64,000 bases of DNA from an uncultured Candidatus Saccharibacteria bacterium (GTDB taxonomy: Bacteria; Patescibacteriota; Minisyncoccia; Sungbacterales; HO2-52-23): assembly GCA_964585475.1 (NCBI GenBank), contig CAZPDF010000001.1:1441-65440 (forward strand), read 5' to 3'. This document shows positions 1,816-54,562 of the stretch, one piece after another; the first letter of the stretch is position 1; every line of letters starts with the position of its first letter. The notes under the pieces were generated by a model that saw nothing but the letters and a program-made list of their open reading frames with translations, searched no databases and was not told the origin of the DNA. A program made the position numbers and the translations under genes.

Positions 1816-2241
1816 TCATGTCTTTTTCCTGTCCTTTTCCATTTCAGCAGTTTCAACCGCATAGACTGCCTTATGCAGTCTTCCATTTTCTAAGTCGGTG
1901 GGAAGGTTATAGCCGTAACAACTTGAGCCTGGTATTACTGGTTTCCACCCCGCCTTTTCGTATATGGAGTAGGCAGGATCATTTTCGGCAATTGAATTGA
2001 ATAGGAGACCCGCCTTTTTCCGTAAATCAAGAAAGTGATTAAGTTCGTTGAGAATATCTTTCCCAAATCCTTGGTTTCTCGCGTGTGGTAAAACAAACAC
2101 CAGTTTTATGTAATAAAACGGGAATGGGCTGTTTCTATATTCTAAATTTGCGAAGCCGACCATATCGCCTTCTGTCTGTAGTTCAATACGATGTATTTTC
2201 CCCTCTGTCGCGGGAGGTTTAAGGTGTTCAAATTCTTTCAT
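1816..2241 (-). CDS. GNAT-family N-acetyltransferase
   Basis: 141 aa with acetyl-CoA-binding-like RNQGFGKDIL and a typical GNAT length. Confidence 0.75.
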   Translation of the reverse strand: MKEFEHLKPPATEGKIHRIELQTEGDMVGFANLEYRNSPFPFYYIKLVFVLPHARNQGFGKDILNELNHFLDLRKKAGLLFNSIAENDPAYSIYEKAGWKPVIPGSSCYGYNLPTDLENGRLHKAVYAVETAEMEKDRKKT

Positions 2242-2406
2242 AATTTTTTAGCCAATTAGGCCTCTCGACAAAAAGTTATTTACCGGCGAGGGGAGGATTC
2301 GAACCTCCGGTACCATTGTTGGTACACCTGTTTTTTCCCGATTTGTCCAAAATTTCGATTCAATTTGAAGAAGAAATTTTGGCAACAAATCGCAATCCCG
2401 TTCAAA

Positions 2407-2723
2407 ACGGAGGCGAGAGGATTTGAACCTCTGAGGGGATTTCGGTTGCCTTCTCGGCAAACCCCAGGGCCGACTTTTGTAAAACGTTCGCAAGGCGCAC
2501 TTAAATAAAGTAGTCGGCCCGCGAAACGATCGGTAATCGTTTCGCCCAGCCGGTTTCTTGCCCCGCACTAAAATTTGGATTTTCGGAAGCGGGAGGATTC
2601 GAACCTCCGATACGGTTTCCCGTATAACGGTTTTCGAGACCGTCCCATTCAACCACTCTGGCACGCTTCCAAATTTTTAGTGCGGGGTCGAGACCGGCGC
2701 TTTAGACCACTCAGCCACGCCTC
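2407..2723 (-). pseudogene. interrupted tRNA-Ser(CGA)-like gene (5' exon-like 2687-2723; 3' part 2407-2555) hosting the intact tRNA-Ser
   Basis: The 5' part GGAGGCG TG GCT GAGTGGTCTAA AGC G CCGGT CTCGA is canonical through position 36. The 3' part AAACCGG ... CAGAGG TTCAAAT CCTCT CGCCTCC G has a perfect 7-bp acceptor pairing. An extra ~90 nt, possibly a second insert, sits between the anticodon stem and the variable/T arm. Confidence 0.5.
2584..2669 (-). tRNA. tRNA-Ser(CGA), type II with long variable arm; no encoded CCA
   Basis: GGAAGCG TG CCA GAGTGGTTGAA TGG G ACGGT CTCGAAA ACCGT TATACGGGAAACCGTATC GGAGG TTCGAAT CCTCC CGCTTCC G. It is flanked by the inverted repeats 2560-2577 and 2668-2686. 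Confidence 0.85.
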
Positions 2724-2934
2724 CGTTTTGTCCGGGACGAGACCGTCCCATTGTTTTGCCTTCGTCGGCAAAACCCAGGGAAATTTTTTACGTTCGCACG
2801 GCTCCGCCGGCTCGCTAAATTTCCCGCGAAAGTCTATAGCTTTCGCCCACTCTGGCATCCCGCCAAATTTTTAGTGCGGGGTCGAGACCGGCGCTTTCAA
2901 TCGGACTCAGCCACCCCACCCCAAGGCGCTAGCT

Positions 2935-2963
2935 CAAAATAGCATTTTTTTCTTGAAAATTCA
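2935..2963 (-). promoter_or_regulatory. candidate sigma70-like promoter for the minus-strand tRNA-Ser array (TTGAAT-17-TATTTT)
   Basis: Reverse complement of 2935-2963 reads TTGAATTTTCAAGAAAAAAATGCTATTTT, placed immediately upstream of the first tRNA-like 5' half. Confidence 0.4.
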
Positions 2964-3032
2964 ACCGGCCGCCCTGCCGAAGGCACGGCTACGGCCGCCT
3001 TGGGGCGACCTGCCTCTAACGGGGTCAATGTA

Positions 3033-3058
3033 AAACCCCGTGCTGTGAGGACGGGGTC
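3033..3058 (-). terminator. rho-independent terminator after the 3066-3938 gene
   Basis: Minus strand: CCCCGTCCTCACAGCACGGGG followed by TTTTACATTG. Confidence 0.7.
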
Positions 3059-3065
3059 GTAAGTA

Positions 3066-3938
3066 TTACTTGAATTCCCAGATAATGCCGGCGCCGATTT
3101 CCATCTCTCGCTTGTTCCCATGGTTCTCGTTAAGTTTGCCGCTCGGGTCAAGGTTTAGCAGGAAACTGTAGTTTCCGCTCAAGCGTAGCGCCAAGCCGTT
3201 AAGGCCTTTGGGAAAGTGGAGGTGCTTACCGAGGTAATATGTAGCGGCAGGAGAGATGCCTATTCGCCGCATCTCAAGGGACCGGTCAAGGTATGCGGAA
3301 GGAGCCAGCGCAAGTTCGATATACTCGGTCGGCCGATAGTAACTGCGGAGCCCCACTTCCATGGTCATGGGGTTTTTATGCTCGGTGGTGGTTATATTGG
3401 TTGCCGGCATGTCGGAGATGATATGGTAGCGGCCGCATCCGTCAATGAGAAAATCTGGGCTGCCAAGAAGTTTCGCACAGGCGCCGATCCAGTGGGTTTT
3501 CGCCCCCCAATCCGGGTTTTTCTCGCCGATATTGTGCATTCTGCGGGTTCCGAGCTCCAGCCGCACCATTTTGAGGAATGCGGGAGTATAGCCGAGTTCT
3601 CCGCCCCAATCAATGCGGTCCGGTGCGTCTGTGCCGGTCAGGAGAGCGAGATCAATGTATGCCTCGAATTTACCCCACTGCGGATCCTCAAAGAAGCGAT
3701 ACTGCGTCTGCATTCCAAGTTTACGGGTCGGGCTCTTTTGGGCATCTCTAACTTTGGTATCAAGCTGTAGCATCCGGTTGTTAAAGACGGACCACTCGTG
3801 GGAAAGTTCGAAACGAAGCGCAGGATCCTGATCCCACCTAATCCCAGAGTATGGCTCGTATGCCGAGGTGTTCGAAAAGGCCAGCAACACGGCCAAAACA
3901 GCGAAAATCGAGGCAAAACGAAGGTAATTCTTGCTCAC
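3066..3938 (-). CDS. secreted hypothetical protein (signal peptide; C-terminal IIWEFK)
   Basis: 290 aa with N-terminal MSKNYLRFASIFAVLAVLLAFS and an aromatic-rich C-terminus. No recognisable catalytic motif. Confidence 0.55.
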   Translation of the reverse strand: MSKNYLRFASIFAVLAVLLAFSNTSAYEPYSGIRWDQDPALRFELSHEWSVFNNRMLQLDTKVRDAQKSPTRKLGMQTQYRFFEDPQWGKFEAYIDLALLTGTDAPDRIDWGGELGYTPAFLKMVRLELGTRRMHNIGEKNPDWGAKTHWIGACAKLLGSPDFLIDGCGRYHIISDMPATNITTTEHKNPMTMEVGLRSYYRPTEYIELALAPSAYLDRSLEMRRIGISPAATYYLGKHLHFPKGLNGLALRLSGNYSFLLNLDPSGKLNENHGNKREMEIGAGIIWEFK

Positions 3939-4164
3939 TGCTTAACCTCGTCTGTAGTGATCTAGCCCATTCGTTGCATATAGGGGGACTTAAGTCAAGT
4001 TTTCTAAAACATTCTGTTTTCCACAGTTTTGGGAAACCCCGCCCCTACTCTACTGCGGAATTCTTACCCTTACTACAAGGATACTGCAGCTTGACCCTTG
4101 TCTTTAATAATTCAACTACGAGGTAGAGTAGGGGGAGCGGGGTAAACAAAATGGACCAGTATTT

Positions 4165-8997: not shown

Positions 8998-9038
8998 CGA
9001 GAAAAACGAATACGCCACCCGGGTGGCGTATTCGTTTT
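8998..9038. terminator. bidirectional rho-independent terminator
   Basis: AAAAACGAATACGCCACCC GGG TGGCGTATTCGTTTT, a 15-bp stem with U-runs on both strands. Confidence 0.7.
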
Positions 9039-9159
9039 GGTGGGCAGTGAAGGAATCGAACCCCGTAGCAGAACCTTCGGTTCGCTACGGGGCAGGCCTA
9101 CGGCCTTCGCGGTGTAAACGCGACGCTCTTCCGGGGATTCTTCTATTTCGAGTGTAAAT
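9039..9159 (-). other. tRNA-Val-like element with genomically encoded 3' CCA (fragmentary or unusual tRNA)
   Basis: Minus strand contains a second copy of the Val anticodon arm TCGCG TTTACAC CGCGA, a GGCCGTAGGCC hairpin, a 9-bp hairpin CCCCGTAGC..GCTACGGGG, a T-loop-like GGTTCGATTCC and ...CACTGCCCACCA. No cloverleaf 5' acceptor partner was found. Confidence 0.3.
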
Positions 9160-9231
9160 TGGGCGCTCAAGGGATCGAACCTTGGGCCTTCTCGGTGTAA
9201 ACGAGACGCTCTACCACTGAGCTAAGCGCCC
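9160..9231 (-). tRNA. tRNA-Val(TAC)
   Basis: GGGCGCT TA GCTC AGTGGTA GAGC G TCTCG TTTACAC CGAGA AGGCC CAAGG TTCGATC CCTTG AGCGCCC A. Confidence 0.85.
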
Positions 9232-9235
9232 AAAA

Positions 9236-9667
9236 TTATTCTCCGGTCCAGCTTAATATCCAGCGCGGCTTGATTTTTAAAGTCACTCGGGAGCCGGCCT
9301 CCAGCAGCTCCTTAAAATATTTCCCCGCTTTTTCTTTTGGCAAGTACTTATATGCGAGCCGTTCTAAAAGCTTTCCTTCCGGGTCGTCCTCCATGGTGAC
9401 ATCTCCGTAACCGACAACCGCAGCATAAGGTAGAGAGTGTTCAGCAATAGAAAACCCCGCCTTGGGATCCTCCTTTAAATTTCTCGTCTTTTTACGTCCC
9501 GGGGTGGTGCTGACCAAAAAGTTTTCTCCATCATACTCAAACCACACCGGAGTTACATGAGGATATCCTTCCGGCGTAATTGTCGCAATATCCATCAGGA
9601 CAGGACGCTGAAAAAATTTTTTCATTTGTTCCGGAGTCATCCCCGGAGTTACTGGATTTGAAGACAT
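9236..9667 (-). CDS. pyridoxamine 5'-phosphate oxidase-family (FMN-binding split-barrel) protein
   Basis: 143 aa with MDIATITPEGYPHVTPVWFEYDGENFLVST, typical of the PPOX/general-stress-protein-26 fold. Confidence 0.7.
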   Translation of the reverse strand: MSSNPVTPGMTPEQMKKFFQRPVLMDIATITPEGYPHVTPVWFEYDGENFLVSTTPGRKKTRNLKEDPKAGFSIAEHSLPYAAVVGYGDVTMEDDPEGKLLERLAYKYLPKEKAGKYFKELLEAGSRVTLKIKPRWILSWTGE

Positions 9668-9668
9668 A

Positions 9669-9740
9669 TGCGCGCTGAGGGGATTGAACCCCCGACCTAC
9701 TCTACGTCAAAGAGTCGCTCTACCACTGAGCTACGCTCGC
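9669..9740 (-). tRNA. tRNA-Val(GAC); two acceptor-stem mismatches
   Basis: GCGAGCG TA GCTC AGTGGTA GAGC G ACTCT TTGACGT AGAGT AGGTC GGGGG TTCAATC CCCTC AGCGCGC A. A4:G69 and G7:A66 do not pair. Confidence 0.55.
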
Positions 9741-9822
9741 AAGTGTAACGGGGCAAGCTACCGCCTAATTTGATGAATTAGGCGAGCCTCGCTCAGCTTT
9801 GATGAGCGGGAGCCAAACGCCC

Positions 9823-11788: not shown

Positions 11789-11976
11789 TGGCCCCAATGG
11801 GATTCGAACCCATGTACTGGGCTCTTGCCCTCCCACTTTTTTGTTTGCCGCCACCGGGATTCGAACCCGGGTACCGGGCTTGAAAAGCCCGTGTCCTAGA
11901 CCAAGCTAGACGATGGCGGCGTCAAAAGTGGGAGGGTGAAAAAAGCCCATGTCCTAGGCCTCTAGACGATGGGGCC
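11789..11976 (-). repeat. nested tRNA-Glu locus: Glu-type tRNA-like gene split in the anticodon loop (5' half 11937-11976, 3' half 11789-11824) by an IR-bounded insert carrying the intact tRNA-Glu
   Basis: 5' half GGCCCCA TC GTCT AGAGGCCTA GGAC A TGGGC TTTTTTCA. IR CCCTCCCACTTTT / AAAAGTGGGAGGG, then CAAG A. 3' half GCCCA GTAC ATGGG TTCGAAT CCCAT TGGGGCC A, with a perfect 7-bp acceptor pairing between the halves. Confidence 0.6.
11846..11920 (-). tRNA. tRNA-Glu(TTC)
   Basis: GCCGCCA TC GTCT AGCTTGGTCTA GGAC A CGGGC TTTTCAA GCCCG GTAC CCGGG TTCGAAT CCCGG TGGCGGC A. Confidence 0.85.
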
Positions 11977-16847: not shown

Positions 16848-17159
16848 GTGTGGACCCGGCGGGACTTGCACCCGCTTTCTCGCTTACCAAAGGCGAAATT
16901 TTACTCCATAAACTACAGGCCCAGGGTCCACAGAATAAAGGTAAAACAAAAGAAGCCCCTTTTCAAGGACTTCTTTTGTTTGGTAAGCGAGGACCCGCAA
17001 TTTATGCGAATTCCGCCTTGTGACTCCATTATACTCTTGCCAACTTTTATGTCAATAGGAAGTATTAACAGTAAAATTTGGTATCAATAAGCCCTTCACC
17101 CCGATTACGGCGGTTCGAGCGATCGCCCATCCGAAGCTCAAAGAACGAAGAAGAGTTGT

Positions 17160-28568: not shown

Positions 28569-28750
<182 letters not shown>

Positions 28751-37261: not shown

Positions 37262-37833
37262 TTTTGTGCGGGAGACGCGGAAATTGGGGGCAAAACGCAA
37301 AATGCTTTGCGTTTTGCGGGACTGCTACATTAAATCCGCGAGCTAACGAGCGTAAAAAATAAAGGCAGTCCCGGGAATTTGTGAAGGAACAAATTGATTC
37401 TCTGTCCCGGAGTTTTATGATAGAACTTATCTATGGAAAACCCAATTGAAAAAGGCCCTGAACGGATCCTGACAAAAGAAGACGTCATGGAGGTTATTGC
37501 TCGTCATGCGGAAAATGCTATCCTCGTTCGAGAGTTGTCTGACGAGCAGGGACTCTACTTACTTGAAGTAAAAGTAGAAGGCAAAGAGTCCGATGAAATT
37601 ATCCAATATCAATATATGAGGAAAGGAAGGTTCCCAAACCACAACGAAGCATCAGAAACTGCTATTCATGCTGTGTATTATCAAGGTGAAACGCCAGTTG
37701 GTGGAGATAAAATTGCTGTTTATAAATCTGAAATGGGGGGCTGGGAAGAAGTAGAATAAGTTCCAACATCGTCCCACAGCCGTAGAGCCCTTGCGATTCC
37801 TACCGAGATGGGTCATGCGCTATATCCACAAAA

Positions 37834-47042: not shown

Positions 47043-47106
47043 AGGGCTTTCTCTAAATTTTCGAGTTCGTAGAACGAAGAAAATTTAGCTAGAAAACCTT
47101 TACCGA

Positions 47107-47368
47107 GCACTCAATTTATTCTGCTATGTATTATGTCTATGTGATTCGTAATCGGAAGTCGCGGGAAACCTATATCGGTTATTCCGACGACTTGAAACGG
47201 AGGTTACGAGAACACAAGGATAAAAATCCGGAGCTTCTGTATTACGAAGCATACAAAAGCGAGAAGGATGCAAGGATACGGGAGAAAAAGCTGAAGCAGC
47301 GGGGGACAAAGCATCCGCTGGCTCAAAGAAAGATTGAAGTACAGTTTAGCAGAATAAATTGAGTGCTC
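47107..47368 (+). mobile_element. GIY-YIG nuclease ORF bracketed by perfect 21-bp inverted repeats
   Basis: GAGCACTCAATTTATTCTGCT (47107-47127) and AGCAGAATAAATTGAGTGCTC (47348-47368) flank the 78-aa ORF. Confidence 0.5.
47126..47362 (+). CDS. GIY-YIG nuclease-family protein
   Basis: MYYVYVIRNRKSRETYIGYSDDLKRRLREH, the GIY...YIG motifs with conserved Arg and Glu. Confidence 0.75.
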   Translation: MYYVYVIRNRKSRETYIGYSDDLKRRLREHKDKNPELLYYEAYKSEKDARIREKKLKQRGTKHPLAQRKIEVQFSRIN

Positions 47369-47721
47369 GGTGCTCAATGCTGTTACCAAATTTTCTTCAC
47401 CGTTGGTTCGAAAATTTGGACATCATTGGCAAATAATAAAAAAGAGGGGCATGTCGCCCCTGAGTTTAGTGGAGATAGGATCCGAGGTCTTTCTCGCGGA
47501 AATGCTTCGTGAGGTCGCTCTCCGACGTGATGACAAAATTGGCGAGGCGCGGATTTTTTTCCTTGATTTTCACCCCCGCAACGGCAGCAGCGATTTCTTC
47601 GACGGCTTCCTCAAGTTCTCGCCACGCCCGCTCGAATCTTTCCTGAAGCATTTCGCGTGTGAAAGAATTCGGAAGCGGCGGTTTATTCTTCCAGATGACG
47701 TACTCGTACGGGGCCGTCACG

Positions 47722-54412: not shown

Positions 54413-54562
54413 GTCAACCCCGCACCTTTTATGCGCTAGGCCACCTCGCGAGCACCGGATTCTTATACCTATTCGGCACTTACTCTATACAGAGTTAATC
54501 TCGGCATACAGTGTACCTGTGAGGTGGCTGGTGCGATGCGGCGCATAAAAGGTGCGGGGTCA
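54413..54562. repeat. MITE-like element with perfect 24-bp terminal inverted repeats (GTTGACCCCGCACCTTTTATGCGC)
   Basis: Arms at 54413-54436 and 54539-54562. Inner IR GCCACCTC/GAGGTGGC. The termini contain the CCCCGCACC motif shared with the tRNA-locus repeats. Confidence 0.65.

Follow-up and report, generated by a model that had tools for sequence, protein, structure and literature searches.

A nest of tRNA-Ser genes lies on the minus strand, between positions 2284 and 2922, of the 64,000-nt stretch of DNA analysed here (the window; contig CAZPDF010000001.1 of assembly GCA_964585475.1, from an uncultured Candidatus Saccharibacteria bacterium). Its innermost member, a tRNA-Ser(CGA) gene that we call layer D, is the sole intact gene, and around it stand the broken parts of three further tRNA-Ser genes, layers C, B and A. 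The nest probably consists of fossil layers of nuclease-associated cassettes that replaced a tRNA gene, with only D functional today.

Read along the minus strand, the parts follow one another as A5' B5' C5' D C3' B3' (Table 1). This is strict nesting, which the predicted fold also contains, and not the head-to-tail order of tandem tRNA duplicates or of a pseudogene array. A first-pass annotation made from the letters of the window had described much of this anatomy, and all of its sequence statements could be located on the minus strand. These were a 5' half (layer C) running to nucleotide 36 of a CGA loop; a 19-nt repeat, a complete tRNA-Ser(CGA), which ARAGORN and Rfam also recognize, an inverted repeat and CAAG; a perfect outer acceptor, in which CGCCTCC, at the end of a T-arm and acceptor piece (2433-2409), pairs 7/7 with GGAGGCG; another Ser 5' half further upstream, followed by the same repeat (layer A, 2922-2882, and 2881-2863); and an orphan 3' piece downstream (2335-2284) whose acceptor, CCTCGCC, pairs 6/7 (one G-U) with GGCGGGA at 2864-2858. 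Its outline of the outer 3' part was correct for AAACCGG, the T-arm and the acceptor, and incomplete between them, where the gap conceals a 110-nt element, X2.

The leader and trailer pairs that adjoin the inner tRNAs, alpha (18/19 nt) and beta (13 nt), rank first among the inverted repeats of the region. Three copies of the alpha repeat are present where 0.04 would be expected by chance, the beta arms lie within a 20-nt inverted repeat that is 90% complementary and also forms in the fold, and when the whole 643 nt is folded, the minimum-energy structure shows the nesting again (z = -9). The two pairs mark two junction types: the alpha unit splits C after A36, and the beta-bounded C splits B after G35 (CTCG, 35/36). 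Joining the halves of C, CTCGA and AAACCGG, gives a legal loop, CTCGAAA, on a CCGGT/ACCGG stem, as in the uninterrupted gene of a relative (locus L017, below). The second 5' part of B matches the corresponding stretch of D at 15/15 positions, and AAAAT separates D from the alpha trailer. Intactness drops outwards. D is intact and C is intact save for X2; B carries a related insert, X1, and pairs only 3/5 in its anticodon stem and 6/7 in its acceptor; A, whose 5' half ends ...CCGGTCTCGA (2922-2882, minus), is missing the other half, and sequence inspection downstream of B found no matching repeat or T-arm. In the Rfam scan only D scored as a tRNA, the 3' part of B appearing only as a T-arm-like fragment. 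ARAGORN in intron mode (0-500 nt) detected no outer gene. A promoter and terminator scan of 2150-3150 gave nothing above shuffled expectation. Upstream of A, 2925-3060 (minus) holds CCCCGTTAGAGG, a leader type known at other inner tRNAs, together with GC-rich hairpins; this sequence may be the remains of another layer or a Z-like element (for Z, see below).

The layers also differ in a regular manner. The anticodon stem reads CCGGT in A, ACGGT in B, CCGGT in C and ACGGT in D, and both the insertion site (36/37 versus 35/36) and the junction type (alpha or beta) alternate strictly with it. Because stem, site and junction type alternate by layer, the pattern suggests two cassette lineages, each with an allele that would be immune to its own nuclease and open to that of the other.

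The locus was compared with six relatives (Candidatus Sungbacteria; loci L008, L009, L011, L013, L014 and L017). The context genes of the window are bacterial (ECF sigma, IF-2, RbfA), and the IF-2 gene just downstream of the nest assigns the contig to Candidatus Sungbacteria (Patescibacteria), with a nearest homologue that is only 68% identical. All six relatives have a tRNA-Ser(CGA) at the same place, upstream of DUF4446-IF2-RbfA. Empty sites, for which the first-pass annotation had proposed to look, are present: five of the six (L008, L011, L013, L014 and L017) carry a single plain tRNA-Ser(CGA) at the syntenic site, L008 and L013 along with remnants, namely a fragment of GGCGGGATGCCGGAGTGG plus hairpins and a flipped beta-type leader/trailer. 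L009 is a one-level nest composed of an outer 5' half, TCCCACACAAAAC, an intact inner gene, GTTTTGAACGGGATTGCGATTTGT...AAATCGGGA and an outer 3' half with a 7/7 acceptor. Its GTTTTGAACGGGATTGCGATTTGT...AAATCGGGA corresponds to the beta trailer plus the hairpin element Y of the window, 29 nt (CCTCCGTTTTGAACGGGATTGCGATTTGT) being identical, and the beta leader of the window, TCCCGGACAAAAC, is homologous to its TCCCACACAAAAC. Y is found both after this Ser nest and after tRNA-Cys in L009 and L011.

Each layer of the window has its nearest relative in another species. Layer A is closest to the outer 5' half of L009 (87% identical), B to the L008 gene (86% over the 5' half with X1 removed, with the acceptor of the functional L008 tRNA-Ser(CGA)), C to the functional L017 gene (89%) and D to the L008 gene (86-92%, the 3' part 92%). 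Since each layer is thus closer to another species' gene than to its neighbor in the nest, the layers appear to have come in separately and not via local duplication. Without its insert, layer C has the anticodon arm of the plain L017 gene, L017 representing the empty and C the filled state.

The link to a nuclease comes from related nests, where genes of the GIY-YIG family (PF01541) were found in L034, L009, L008 and L042-L050. In L034, an outer tRNA-Ser(TGA) with a 7/7 acceptor encloses an open reading frame (ORF) of 88 amino acids (aa) with a GIY-YIG domain, and an intact inner tRNA begins 11 nt later; in L009, a GIY-YIG ORF and a tRNA-Phe lie between outer Phe halves. Of five GIY-YIG ORFs in 268 kb of sequence, three stop 7-36 nt short of an intact tRNA that lies downstream in the same orientation. 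For the L034 protein, 52 homologues were found, each a bare PF01541 domain of 76-134 aa from Sungbacteria or Parcubacteria. The contexts of four of these homologues placed the ORF inside an interrupted tRNA-Ser and just upstream of an intact tRNA-Ser in 9/9 loci, and with L034 included this family of ~85-aa proteins is encoded inside interrupted tRNA-Ser genes in 10/10 loci examined (L034 and L042-L050). The layout is the same in 9/9: an outer tRNA-Ser 5' half broken at 35/36 (or 33/34), the small element Z, the ORF, an intact tRNA-Ser and often CTTG-Z followed by the outer 3' half. Two nuclease genes lie in a multi-level doll in a complete genome, CP066690, and in L045 two cassettes follow each other in tandem. 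At L047, a 148-aa ORF with a Phage_integrase domain (2080-2526) overlaps the start of the nest GIY-YIG gene and might be relevant to cassette integration.

The nesting described in the first-pass annotation is real. That the arrangement recurs widely, with three further cases within the window, had been overlooked, as had the elements X and Y. The flanks of every tRNA in the related loci were inspected for halves of a cognate tRNA. The same junction motifs stand on either side of Leu, Val-TAC, Val-GAC, Val-CAC, Glu, Thr, Cys, Phe, Arg and Ile tRNAs in seven related loci and in about 12 unrelated metagenome contigs. Recurring junctions (a slash marks the boundary with the outer gene) are /CCCCGCAC...GGGGCAAG/, /TTCACCC...GGGCAAG/ and, where the insert lies in a D-loop, ends in reverse complement, /CTTGCCC...GGGTGAAG/. 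L009 Leu, L014 Val, window Glu and L008 Glu share the ...GGG(G)CAAG junction, and a leader of the alpha type also stands before inner tRNAs for Leu (L009), Arg-CCG (L036) and Ile (L020).

We used an excision test in which each segment (i, j) around a tRNA was deleted and ARAGORN was asked for a tRNA spanning the joint. No junction-spanning tRNA was obtained for any of eight plain control tRNAs, and many were obtained for nests. For tRNA-Leu(TAA) of L009 there was one unique cognate excision, removing exactly CCCCGCAC...GGGGCAAG, and its product, GGGACT/TAAAATCC, is the uninterrupted orthologous gene of L008; L008 and L009 are a clean empty/filled pair with precise insertion. The outer Ser gene of L009 likewise had one unique solution, and the test revealed no target-site duplication at the Leu and Ser junctions. 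The Val-TAC and Glu outer genes were not restored to a 7-nt loop, a constant 2-nt footprint being left, and no excision at the Thr(CGT) nest of the window yielded a cognate tRNA. The outer Val-TAC gene is perfect in L014, has a non-complementary 3' acceptor in L011 (a complete genome) and has no 3' half in L008. Because this gene decays differently by lineage, and because in the window the B stem is reduced to 3/5 and A has no 3' half, the outer copies appear to be dispensable.

A blastn census of cognate fragments around 66 tRNAs was insensitive to diverged copies and gave 7-14% control matches from the T-loop; it is not used as evidence. The anticodon-repeat junction TCGACCCCGCACTAAAAATTTGG had no match in the Joint Genome Institute (JGI) metagenomes. 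Three further features were seen in passing: a 20-nt palindrome, CCTGCCTGCCGGCAGGCAGG, present twice in one outer tRNA-Phe of L009 (8860-9310, minus), in the D-arm and the T-loop; an inverted pair, CCCCGCACCTTTTATGCGC and GCGCATAAAAGGTGCGGGG, ~130 nt apart at 54419-54558 of the window, with the CCCCGCAC end of the alpha leader and no tRNA called between its arms; and a tRNA at 16851-16922 of the window (minus) that Rfam scored at 42 bits and ARAGORN missed.

Table 1 Features of the tRNA-Ser nest, of other nests and of associated elements in the window and in related loci (L numbers).
Feature	Source	Position	Strand	Description	Method
Layer A	window	2882-2922	minus	orphan 5' half, tRNA-Ser(CGA); anticodon stem CCGGT; end ...CTCGA (position 36)	sequence inspection
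Alpha leader, copy 1	window	2863-2881	minus	19 nt, CCCCGCACTAAAAATTTGG; final GG = first two bases of layer B
Layer B, 5' part 1	window	2847-2864	minus	acceptor and D-stem/loop to G19, GGCGGGATGCCAGAGTGG
X1	window	2753-2846	minus	94-nt three-hairpin element in layer B D-loop	fold, covariance model
Layer B, 5' part 2	window	2738-2752	minus	AATGGGACGGTCTCG; D-stem 3' strand, anticodon stem ACGGT, CTCG, broken after G35
Beta leader	window	2725-2737	minus	TCCCGGACAAAAC; pairs with beta trailer and lengthens C acceptor stem
Layer C, 5' half	window	2688-2724	minus	GGAGGCGTGGCTGAGTGGTCTAAAGCGCCGGTCTCGA; acceptor GGAGGCG, anticodon stem CCGGT, end CTCGA (position 36)
Alpha leader, copy 2	window	2669-2687	minus	CCCCGCACTAAAAATTTGG; overlaps D by GG
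Layer D	window	2583-2671	minus	intact tRNA-Ser(CGA), presumed functional	ARAGORN; Rfam RF00005, 57.5 bits
Alpha trailer	window	2557-2578	minus	CCAAATTTTAGTGCGGGG (2578-2561; inverted leader copy) and conserved CAAG (2560-2557)
Layer C, resumed	window	2550-2556	minus	AAACCGG, positions 37-43
X2	window	2440-2549	minus	110-nt diverged X copy in layer C variable region
Layer C, 3' end	window	2409-2439	minus	variable-arm remainder, T-arm AGAGG/CCTCT, acceptor CGCCTCC (7/7 with GGAGGCG)
Beta trailer	window	2396-2408	minus	GTTTTGAACGGGA; first G = C discriminator base
Y	window	2336-2395	minus	60-nt hairpin TTGCGATTTGT...ACAAATCGGGA, part of beta-type insert	fold z = -4.9
Layer B, 3' part	window	2284-2335	minus	anticodon-stem strand (3/5 pairs), variable arm, T-arm GGAGG/CCTCC, acceptor CCTCGCC
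tRNA-Val(TAC)	window	9034-9765 region	minus	tRNA 9159-9232, then second Val(TAC) 3' two-thirds with T-loop insert
tRNA-Val(GAC)	window	9034-9765 region	minus	tRNA 9668-9741, preceded by outer D-arm remnant GGCGGTAGC/TTGCCCCGTTACACT
Glu nest	window	11789-11976	minus	tRNA-Glu(TTC) 11846-11920 inside outer tRNA-Glu; 7/7 acceptor GGCCCCA/TGGGGCC; junctions TTTT/TTCACCCTCCCAC... and ...GTGGGAGGGCAAG/A
Thr nest	window	~28569-28750	plus	tRNA-Thr(CGT) 28618-28691 between outer tRNA-Thr halves; acceptor 6/7; leader CCCGTTAGAAA, trailer TTTCTAACGG
Gln locus	window	37263-37416	plus	tRNA-Gln(CTG), then TTTTGTGCGGGA trailer, diverged X, 3' acceptor remnant of Gln-like tRNA
Third X	window	37293-37398		after tRNA-Gln, diverged	covariance model, 21 bits
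GIY-YIG ORF	window	47102-47425	plus	78-aa ORF 47126-47359 with perfect 25-bp inverted repeat flanks, then Y-like hairpin
Nested Leu-TAA	L009
Nested Val-TAC	L008, L011, L014
Nested Val-GAC	window, L008, L011, L014			D-loop insertion
Nested Glu-TTC	window, L008
Nested Thr-CGT	window
Nested Cys	L008, L009, L011
Nested Phe	L009, L011
Z	L008	11261-11289
Z	L035	7135-7163
Z	L034, L042-L048

The two inserts in the outer halves of the window nest, X1 and X2, are homologous, and their alignment contains compensatory stem changes. Both fold well (z = -4.7 for X1 and -4.5 for X2) and are recognized by the covariance model (102.8 bits, E = 3e-25, and 42.7 bits, E = 4.5e-9). They belong to a family of more than 25 copies with compensated hairpins, ~100 nt long and made of three hairpins around a strongly conserved core, GGGAAAUUUAGCGAGCCG-hairpin-GUGCGAGCGUUAAAAAUUUCCC; no Rfam match was found. 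MAFFT and RNAalifold recovered the central hairpin only, the outer ones being out of register, so these were scored per copy with ViennaRNA; one flanking hairpin forms in 22/23 copies (21 distinct sequences) and the other in 23/23 (22 distinct sequences). The covariance model finds three copies in the window, always sense to the neighboring tRNA. A scan of JGI metagenomes for the X core returned 24 contigs (L018-L041). About half of these copies interrupt the D-loop of an outer tRNA 5' half immediately behind G18G19, and beyond that half come a leader of the alpha or CCCCGTTAG type and an intact cognate tRNA (Arg, Val-CAC, Ile, Leu or Ser-TGA); in about half of the 24 contigs X lies away from any detectable tRNA, and some copies are inside another X. 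Where X lies in a tRNA gene, it was seen only in outer, already redundant copies, as might be expected if X targeted tRNA loops and its insertion were lethal whenever it hit a single-copy gene. X was not found on viral contigs. An initial pattern, TGCGAACGTN{5,25}CCCTGGGNTTTGCC, matched once in viral contigs and once in GTDB genomes, whose representative set lacks the source genome; both are chance matches within coding sequence.

Z is a 30-nt quasi-palindromic double hairpin (CCCGCCNNNGGCGGG TCCGCCNNNGGCGGA) that flanks nuclease cassettes at tRNA position 35/36. Because it also occurs in frame inside IF-2, Z is probably a small mobile palindrome in its own right, and its presence there and in another coding region weakens its use as support for an RNA intron. 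Z-like hairpins on four viral contigs bear no relation to tRNAs or GIY-YIG genes.

The course of events that we favor would begin with one tRNA-Ser(CGA) gene and involve at least three successive DNA insertions. Each cassette, as preserved here, would be a complete tRNA-Ser(CGA) gene set in a short leader/trailer inverted repeat, and would enter the cognate gene already in place, behind position 35 or 36 of its anticodon loop. The split resident would be replaced by the copy in the cassette; because this supplies a working replacement, insertion would be free of cost to the cell, and sloppy deletion could not reverse it. Because the inner gene again offers an intact loop, the next cassette could invade the replacement, A being split by B, B by C and C by D, and dolls would arise. 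The outer halves would be left as inactive relics, decaying and colonized by X1 and X2. Nuclease-driven homing is the most likely engine, because in related cassettes a GIY-YIG gene is still present immediately upstream of the inner tRNA. The parts of such a cassette would be the nuclease gene, the tRNA framed by inverted repeats and small hairpins. The nuclease would cut uninterrupted cognate alleles, repair would copy the cassette in with the outer halves serving as homology arms, and the nuclease gene would decay or be lost after fixation, giving the state of the window. The anatomy, the allelic states, the recurrence over isoacceptors and genomes, the physical linkage of nuclease and nests and the decay by lineage are direct observations; cleavage and homing by the nuclease, an immune inner allele and inactive outer copies are inferences from them. 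Serial insertion of inverted-repeat-bounded tRNA-Ser units into a cognate anticodon loop, as proposed in the first-pass annotation, is supported by the empty and filled alleles, the cross-species affinities of the layers, the outward decay and the nuclease in related cassettes.

Several observations sit less easily with nuclease-driven homing. The window nest (2284-2922) has no nuclease ORF, and the sole GIY-YIG gene of the window (47126-47359) shares only 27% identity with the nest family and has no adjoining tRNA; with so low an identity and no tRNA link, it was rejected as the engine of the nest. The nest nucleases are bare catalytic domains (72-134 aa) and do not have the DNA-binding domain of characterized homing endonucleases. 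The direct repeat CTTG-Z-AAAAAC around nuclease cassettes is more like single-crossover integration than double-strand-break repair, and terminal inverted repeats stand at every inner tRNA, though homing needs none. The outer genes of window C, L009 Ser, L014 Val and window Glu keep perfect stems, and therefore recent insertion or selection is needed to explain them. Finally, the middle of the nest, 2435-2995, is covered by one assembly lineage.

The alternative that fares best against these data, itself unlikely, places the process at the RNA level. The outer genes would be functional, the leader, inner tRNA and trailer (with X, if there is one) would form an intron that a protein enzyme cuts out before ligation, and one transcript would yield several tRNA-Ser. 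Such processing would account for the alpha inserts, which excise to a perfect 7-nt loop in window C and L009 Leu; for the outer Ser(TGA) of L048, restored when the segment that begins with the left Z and ends with the right Z is excised; and for outer stems that are often perfect (7/7 and 5/5 in C, and also L009 Ser, L014 Val and window Glu). In the fold, the leader-trailer helix would juxtapose the outer halves, as in archaeal split tRNAs. X and the other inserts lie in loops (D, anticodon, variable and T), and tRNAs of Thermoproteales have multiple introns in such loops; X is moreover always sense to the tRNA and contains G-U pairs. The junction, however, does not form a bulge-helix-bulge, as 5 nt (CUCGA) and 6 nt (CAAGAA) are unpaired in place of a 3+4+3 arrangement and there is no 4-bp central helix, and no group I or other ribozyme was matched at E <= 10. 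We know of no bacterial tRNA splicing endonuclease, and GIY-YIG enzymes are, to our knowledge, DNA nucleases. The Val-TAC and Glu outer genes cannot be restored by any single excision, the outer halves show lineage-specific truncation or mismatch (L011, L008, window A and B), and the inner gene makes the outer one redundant. The first-pass annotation had offered intron-like, excised inserts as an alternative, which is not supported, given the missing group I signal, the missing bulge-helix-bulge and some outer genes that no single excision restores; its remark that the inserts have no P1-P9 structure holds, in that no Rfam intron or ribozyme matches at E <= 10. That the outer tRNAs are kept alive by a protein-dependent splicing new to bacteria, which would remove both leader-trailer-tRNA introns and X-type introns with the GIY-YIG protein or X RNA perhaps cutting, we regard as decidedly unlikely.

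Transposition is also quite improbable as the source of the nests. Non-autonomous inverted-repeat units, similar to miniature inverted-repeat transposable elements, or single-stranded DNA hairpin units of the IS200/IS605 kind would be moved into tRNA-gene loops by a transposase encoded elsewhere; only cognate insertions would survive, as the cargo complements the damage, and the GIY-YIG genes would be fellow travelers. The terminal inverted repeats (18/19 nt and 13 nt) are what such units would have, the same end families (CCCCGCAC..., CCCCGTTAGA... and CCCTCCCAC...) surround different cargo tRNAs, and the same two ends are flipped between D-loop and anticodon-loop nests. Insertion sites are always loops, and X and Z behave as small mobile palindromes (X inside X; Z in frame in IF-2). 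Elements with IS200/IS605-type ends make no target duplication and have a fixed 3' tetranucleotide, which CAAG resembles. Yet no transposase is among the called genes in or next to any nest (about 300 kb of loci), and with 5' flanks as different as GACT/, TCGA/ and CTCG/ the insertions share no target tetranucleotide. The GIY-YIG nuclease is the sole protein consistently linked to nests (10/10 family loci), and independent origins of cargo elements for about ten isoacceptors are harder to envisage than co-conversion during homing.

That no mobile element took part, and that local duplication, hairpin-mediated template switching or recombination among tRNA-Ser paralogues nested the genes incidentally, or that the locus is an assembly artefact, is highly improbable. 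The A5'-alpha-B5' and C5'-alpha-D5' segments do share a 56-nt stretch at 89% identity, and the junction between B5' and X1 could derive from deletion between two TGG in a duplicated C[D] unit. Against this stand the strict 5'-5'-5'-5' ... 3'-3'-3' order with matching acceptors (C 7/7, B 6/7), layers that are nearer to other species' genes than to each other, empty and filled alleles with exact boundaries, and the recurrence of architecture and junctions for many isoacceptors in independent assemblies and a complete genome. With regard to the assembly itself, a second long contig, ERZ27284378, shows no difference across the locus. Positions 1-2434, and with them the right third of the nest (C T-arm, beta trailer, Y and B 3' part), are confirmed by an independent k=31 Logan assembly, as are 2996-4116; the break of this assembly between 2434 and 2996, which could be read as a sign of artefact, is expected with exact repeats of at least 31 nt, and repeats of at most 56 nt are unable to mislead a k=139 assembly. 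Because the same architecture is present in many independent assemblies and one complete genome, an artefact is very unlikely. A group I intron was rejected, as Rfam cmscan (E <= 10) found no intron or ribozyme family on either strand of 2100-3200 and the 5' exons end in A36 (A, C) or G35 (B) and not in U, although the alpha insert does end in G (CAAG); an integrase island was rejected because the window nest has no integrase and a complete new gene has the two halves of the old one on either side.

If nuclease-associated cassettes did build these nests, they would represent a new selfish strategy, in which an essential single-copy tRNA gene is broken while a complete spare is brought along, making the insertion harmless and hard to lose. 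Introns and inteins, in contrast, splice themselves out, and integrating phages restore a gene end. Repeated rounds would leave a readable stratigraphy of invasions, and the alternating alleles hint at an arms race between nuclease specificity and tRNA sequence. In practical terms, tRNA loci of Patescibacteria are full of tRNA halves and ~100-nt structured inserts, which break short-k assemblies and mislead tRNA annotation and pseudogene counts, and an inner tRNA may be a recent immigrant, which bears on tRNA phylogeny and codon-usage inference. X, an unclassified and well-structured RNA-like family, is of interest in itself.

Full-text searches of the literature yielded no description of a tRNA nested in a cognate tRNA in bacteria, in agreement with the first-pass statement that no such bacterial system has been described, and the nests share features with several known systems. 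In phage T4, the free-standing GIY-YIG enzyme SegB is encoded between tRNA genes (tRNA-Arg/tRNA-Ile), targets the tRNA region and spreads by intronless homing (PMC2988022, PMC13096335). The likeness lies in a GIY-YIG gene among or within tRNA genes without an intron ribozyme, in empty and filled alleles among relatives and, presumably, in cleavage of nuclease-less alleles and co-conversion of flanking DNA, here the replacement tRNA. In the nests, however, the cassette is inside the tRNA gene and not between genes, and it brings a full cognate replacement that leads to nested genes; the host is a cellular genome of the candidate phyla radiation rather than a phage, and the nucleases are bare ~85-aa domains next to tRNAs framed by inverted repeats, known here from sequence.

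Group I introns at position 35/36 of tRNA anticodon loops are enriched in Patescibacteria; they follow a U and are ribozymes (PMC13011429). They share with the nests the phylum, the 35/36-region target and a host gene that is 'missing' or broken to annotation tools. The nests, in contrast, have no P1-P9 ribozyme, their 5' exons end in G or A, the insert is mostly tRNA, and rescue would come from a spare copy and not from splicing. Archaeal split, permuted and multi-intron tRNA genes, processed at a bulge-helix-bulge (PMC3978253, PMC4090602), also have interrupted D, anticodon, variable and T loops, leader/trailer complementarity and mobile-looking inserts that share sequence between sites. Here the genome is bacterial, there is no bulge-helix-bulge, a complete cognate tRNA lies inside and the outer halves are decaying.

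Tyrosine-integrase phages and genomic islands insert at tRNA genes and bring along a copy of the tRNA end that they displace. As in the nests, a tRNA is the landing site, the damage is neutralized by tRNA sequence that the element brings and a displaced relic remains; the CTTG-Z-AAAAAC repeats also resemble attL/attR. The nests differ in that a whole tRNA is supplied, both old halves are nested, the insert is only 130-500 nt and there is no integrase. In 'fractured genes', the gene of a free-standing homing endonuclease interrupts an essential gene, whose product is restored by split inteins (PMC2677866). Both arrangements place a nuclease gene inside an essential gene and have a built-in device that keeps the host viable, but the rescue there is protein trans-splicing of the halves, whereas here it would be a spare gene copy, with the halves abandoned. 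Free-standing homing endonucleases and mobile DNA that targets tRNA genes are thus known; what is new is the complete replacement gene, its nesting and the stacking of one layer within another.

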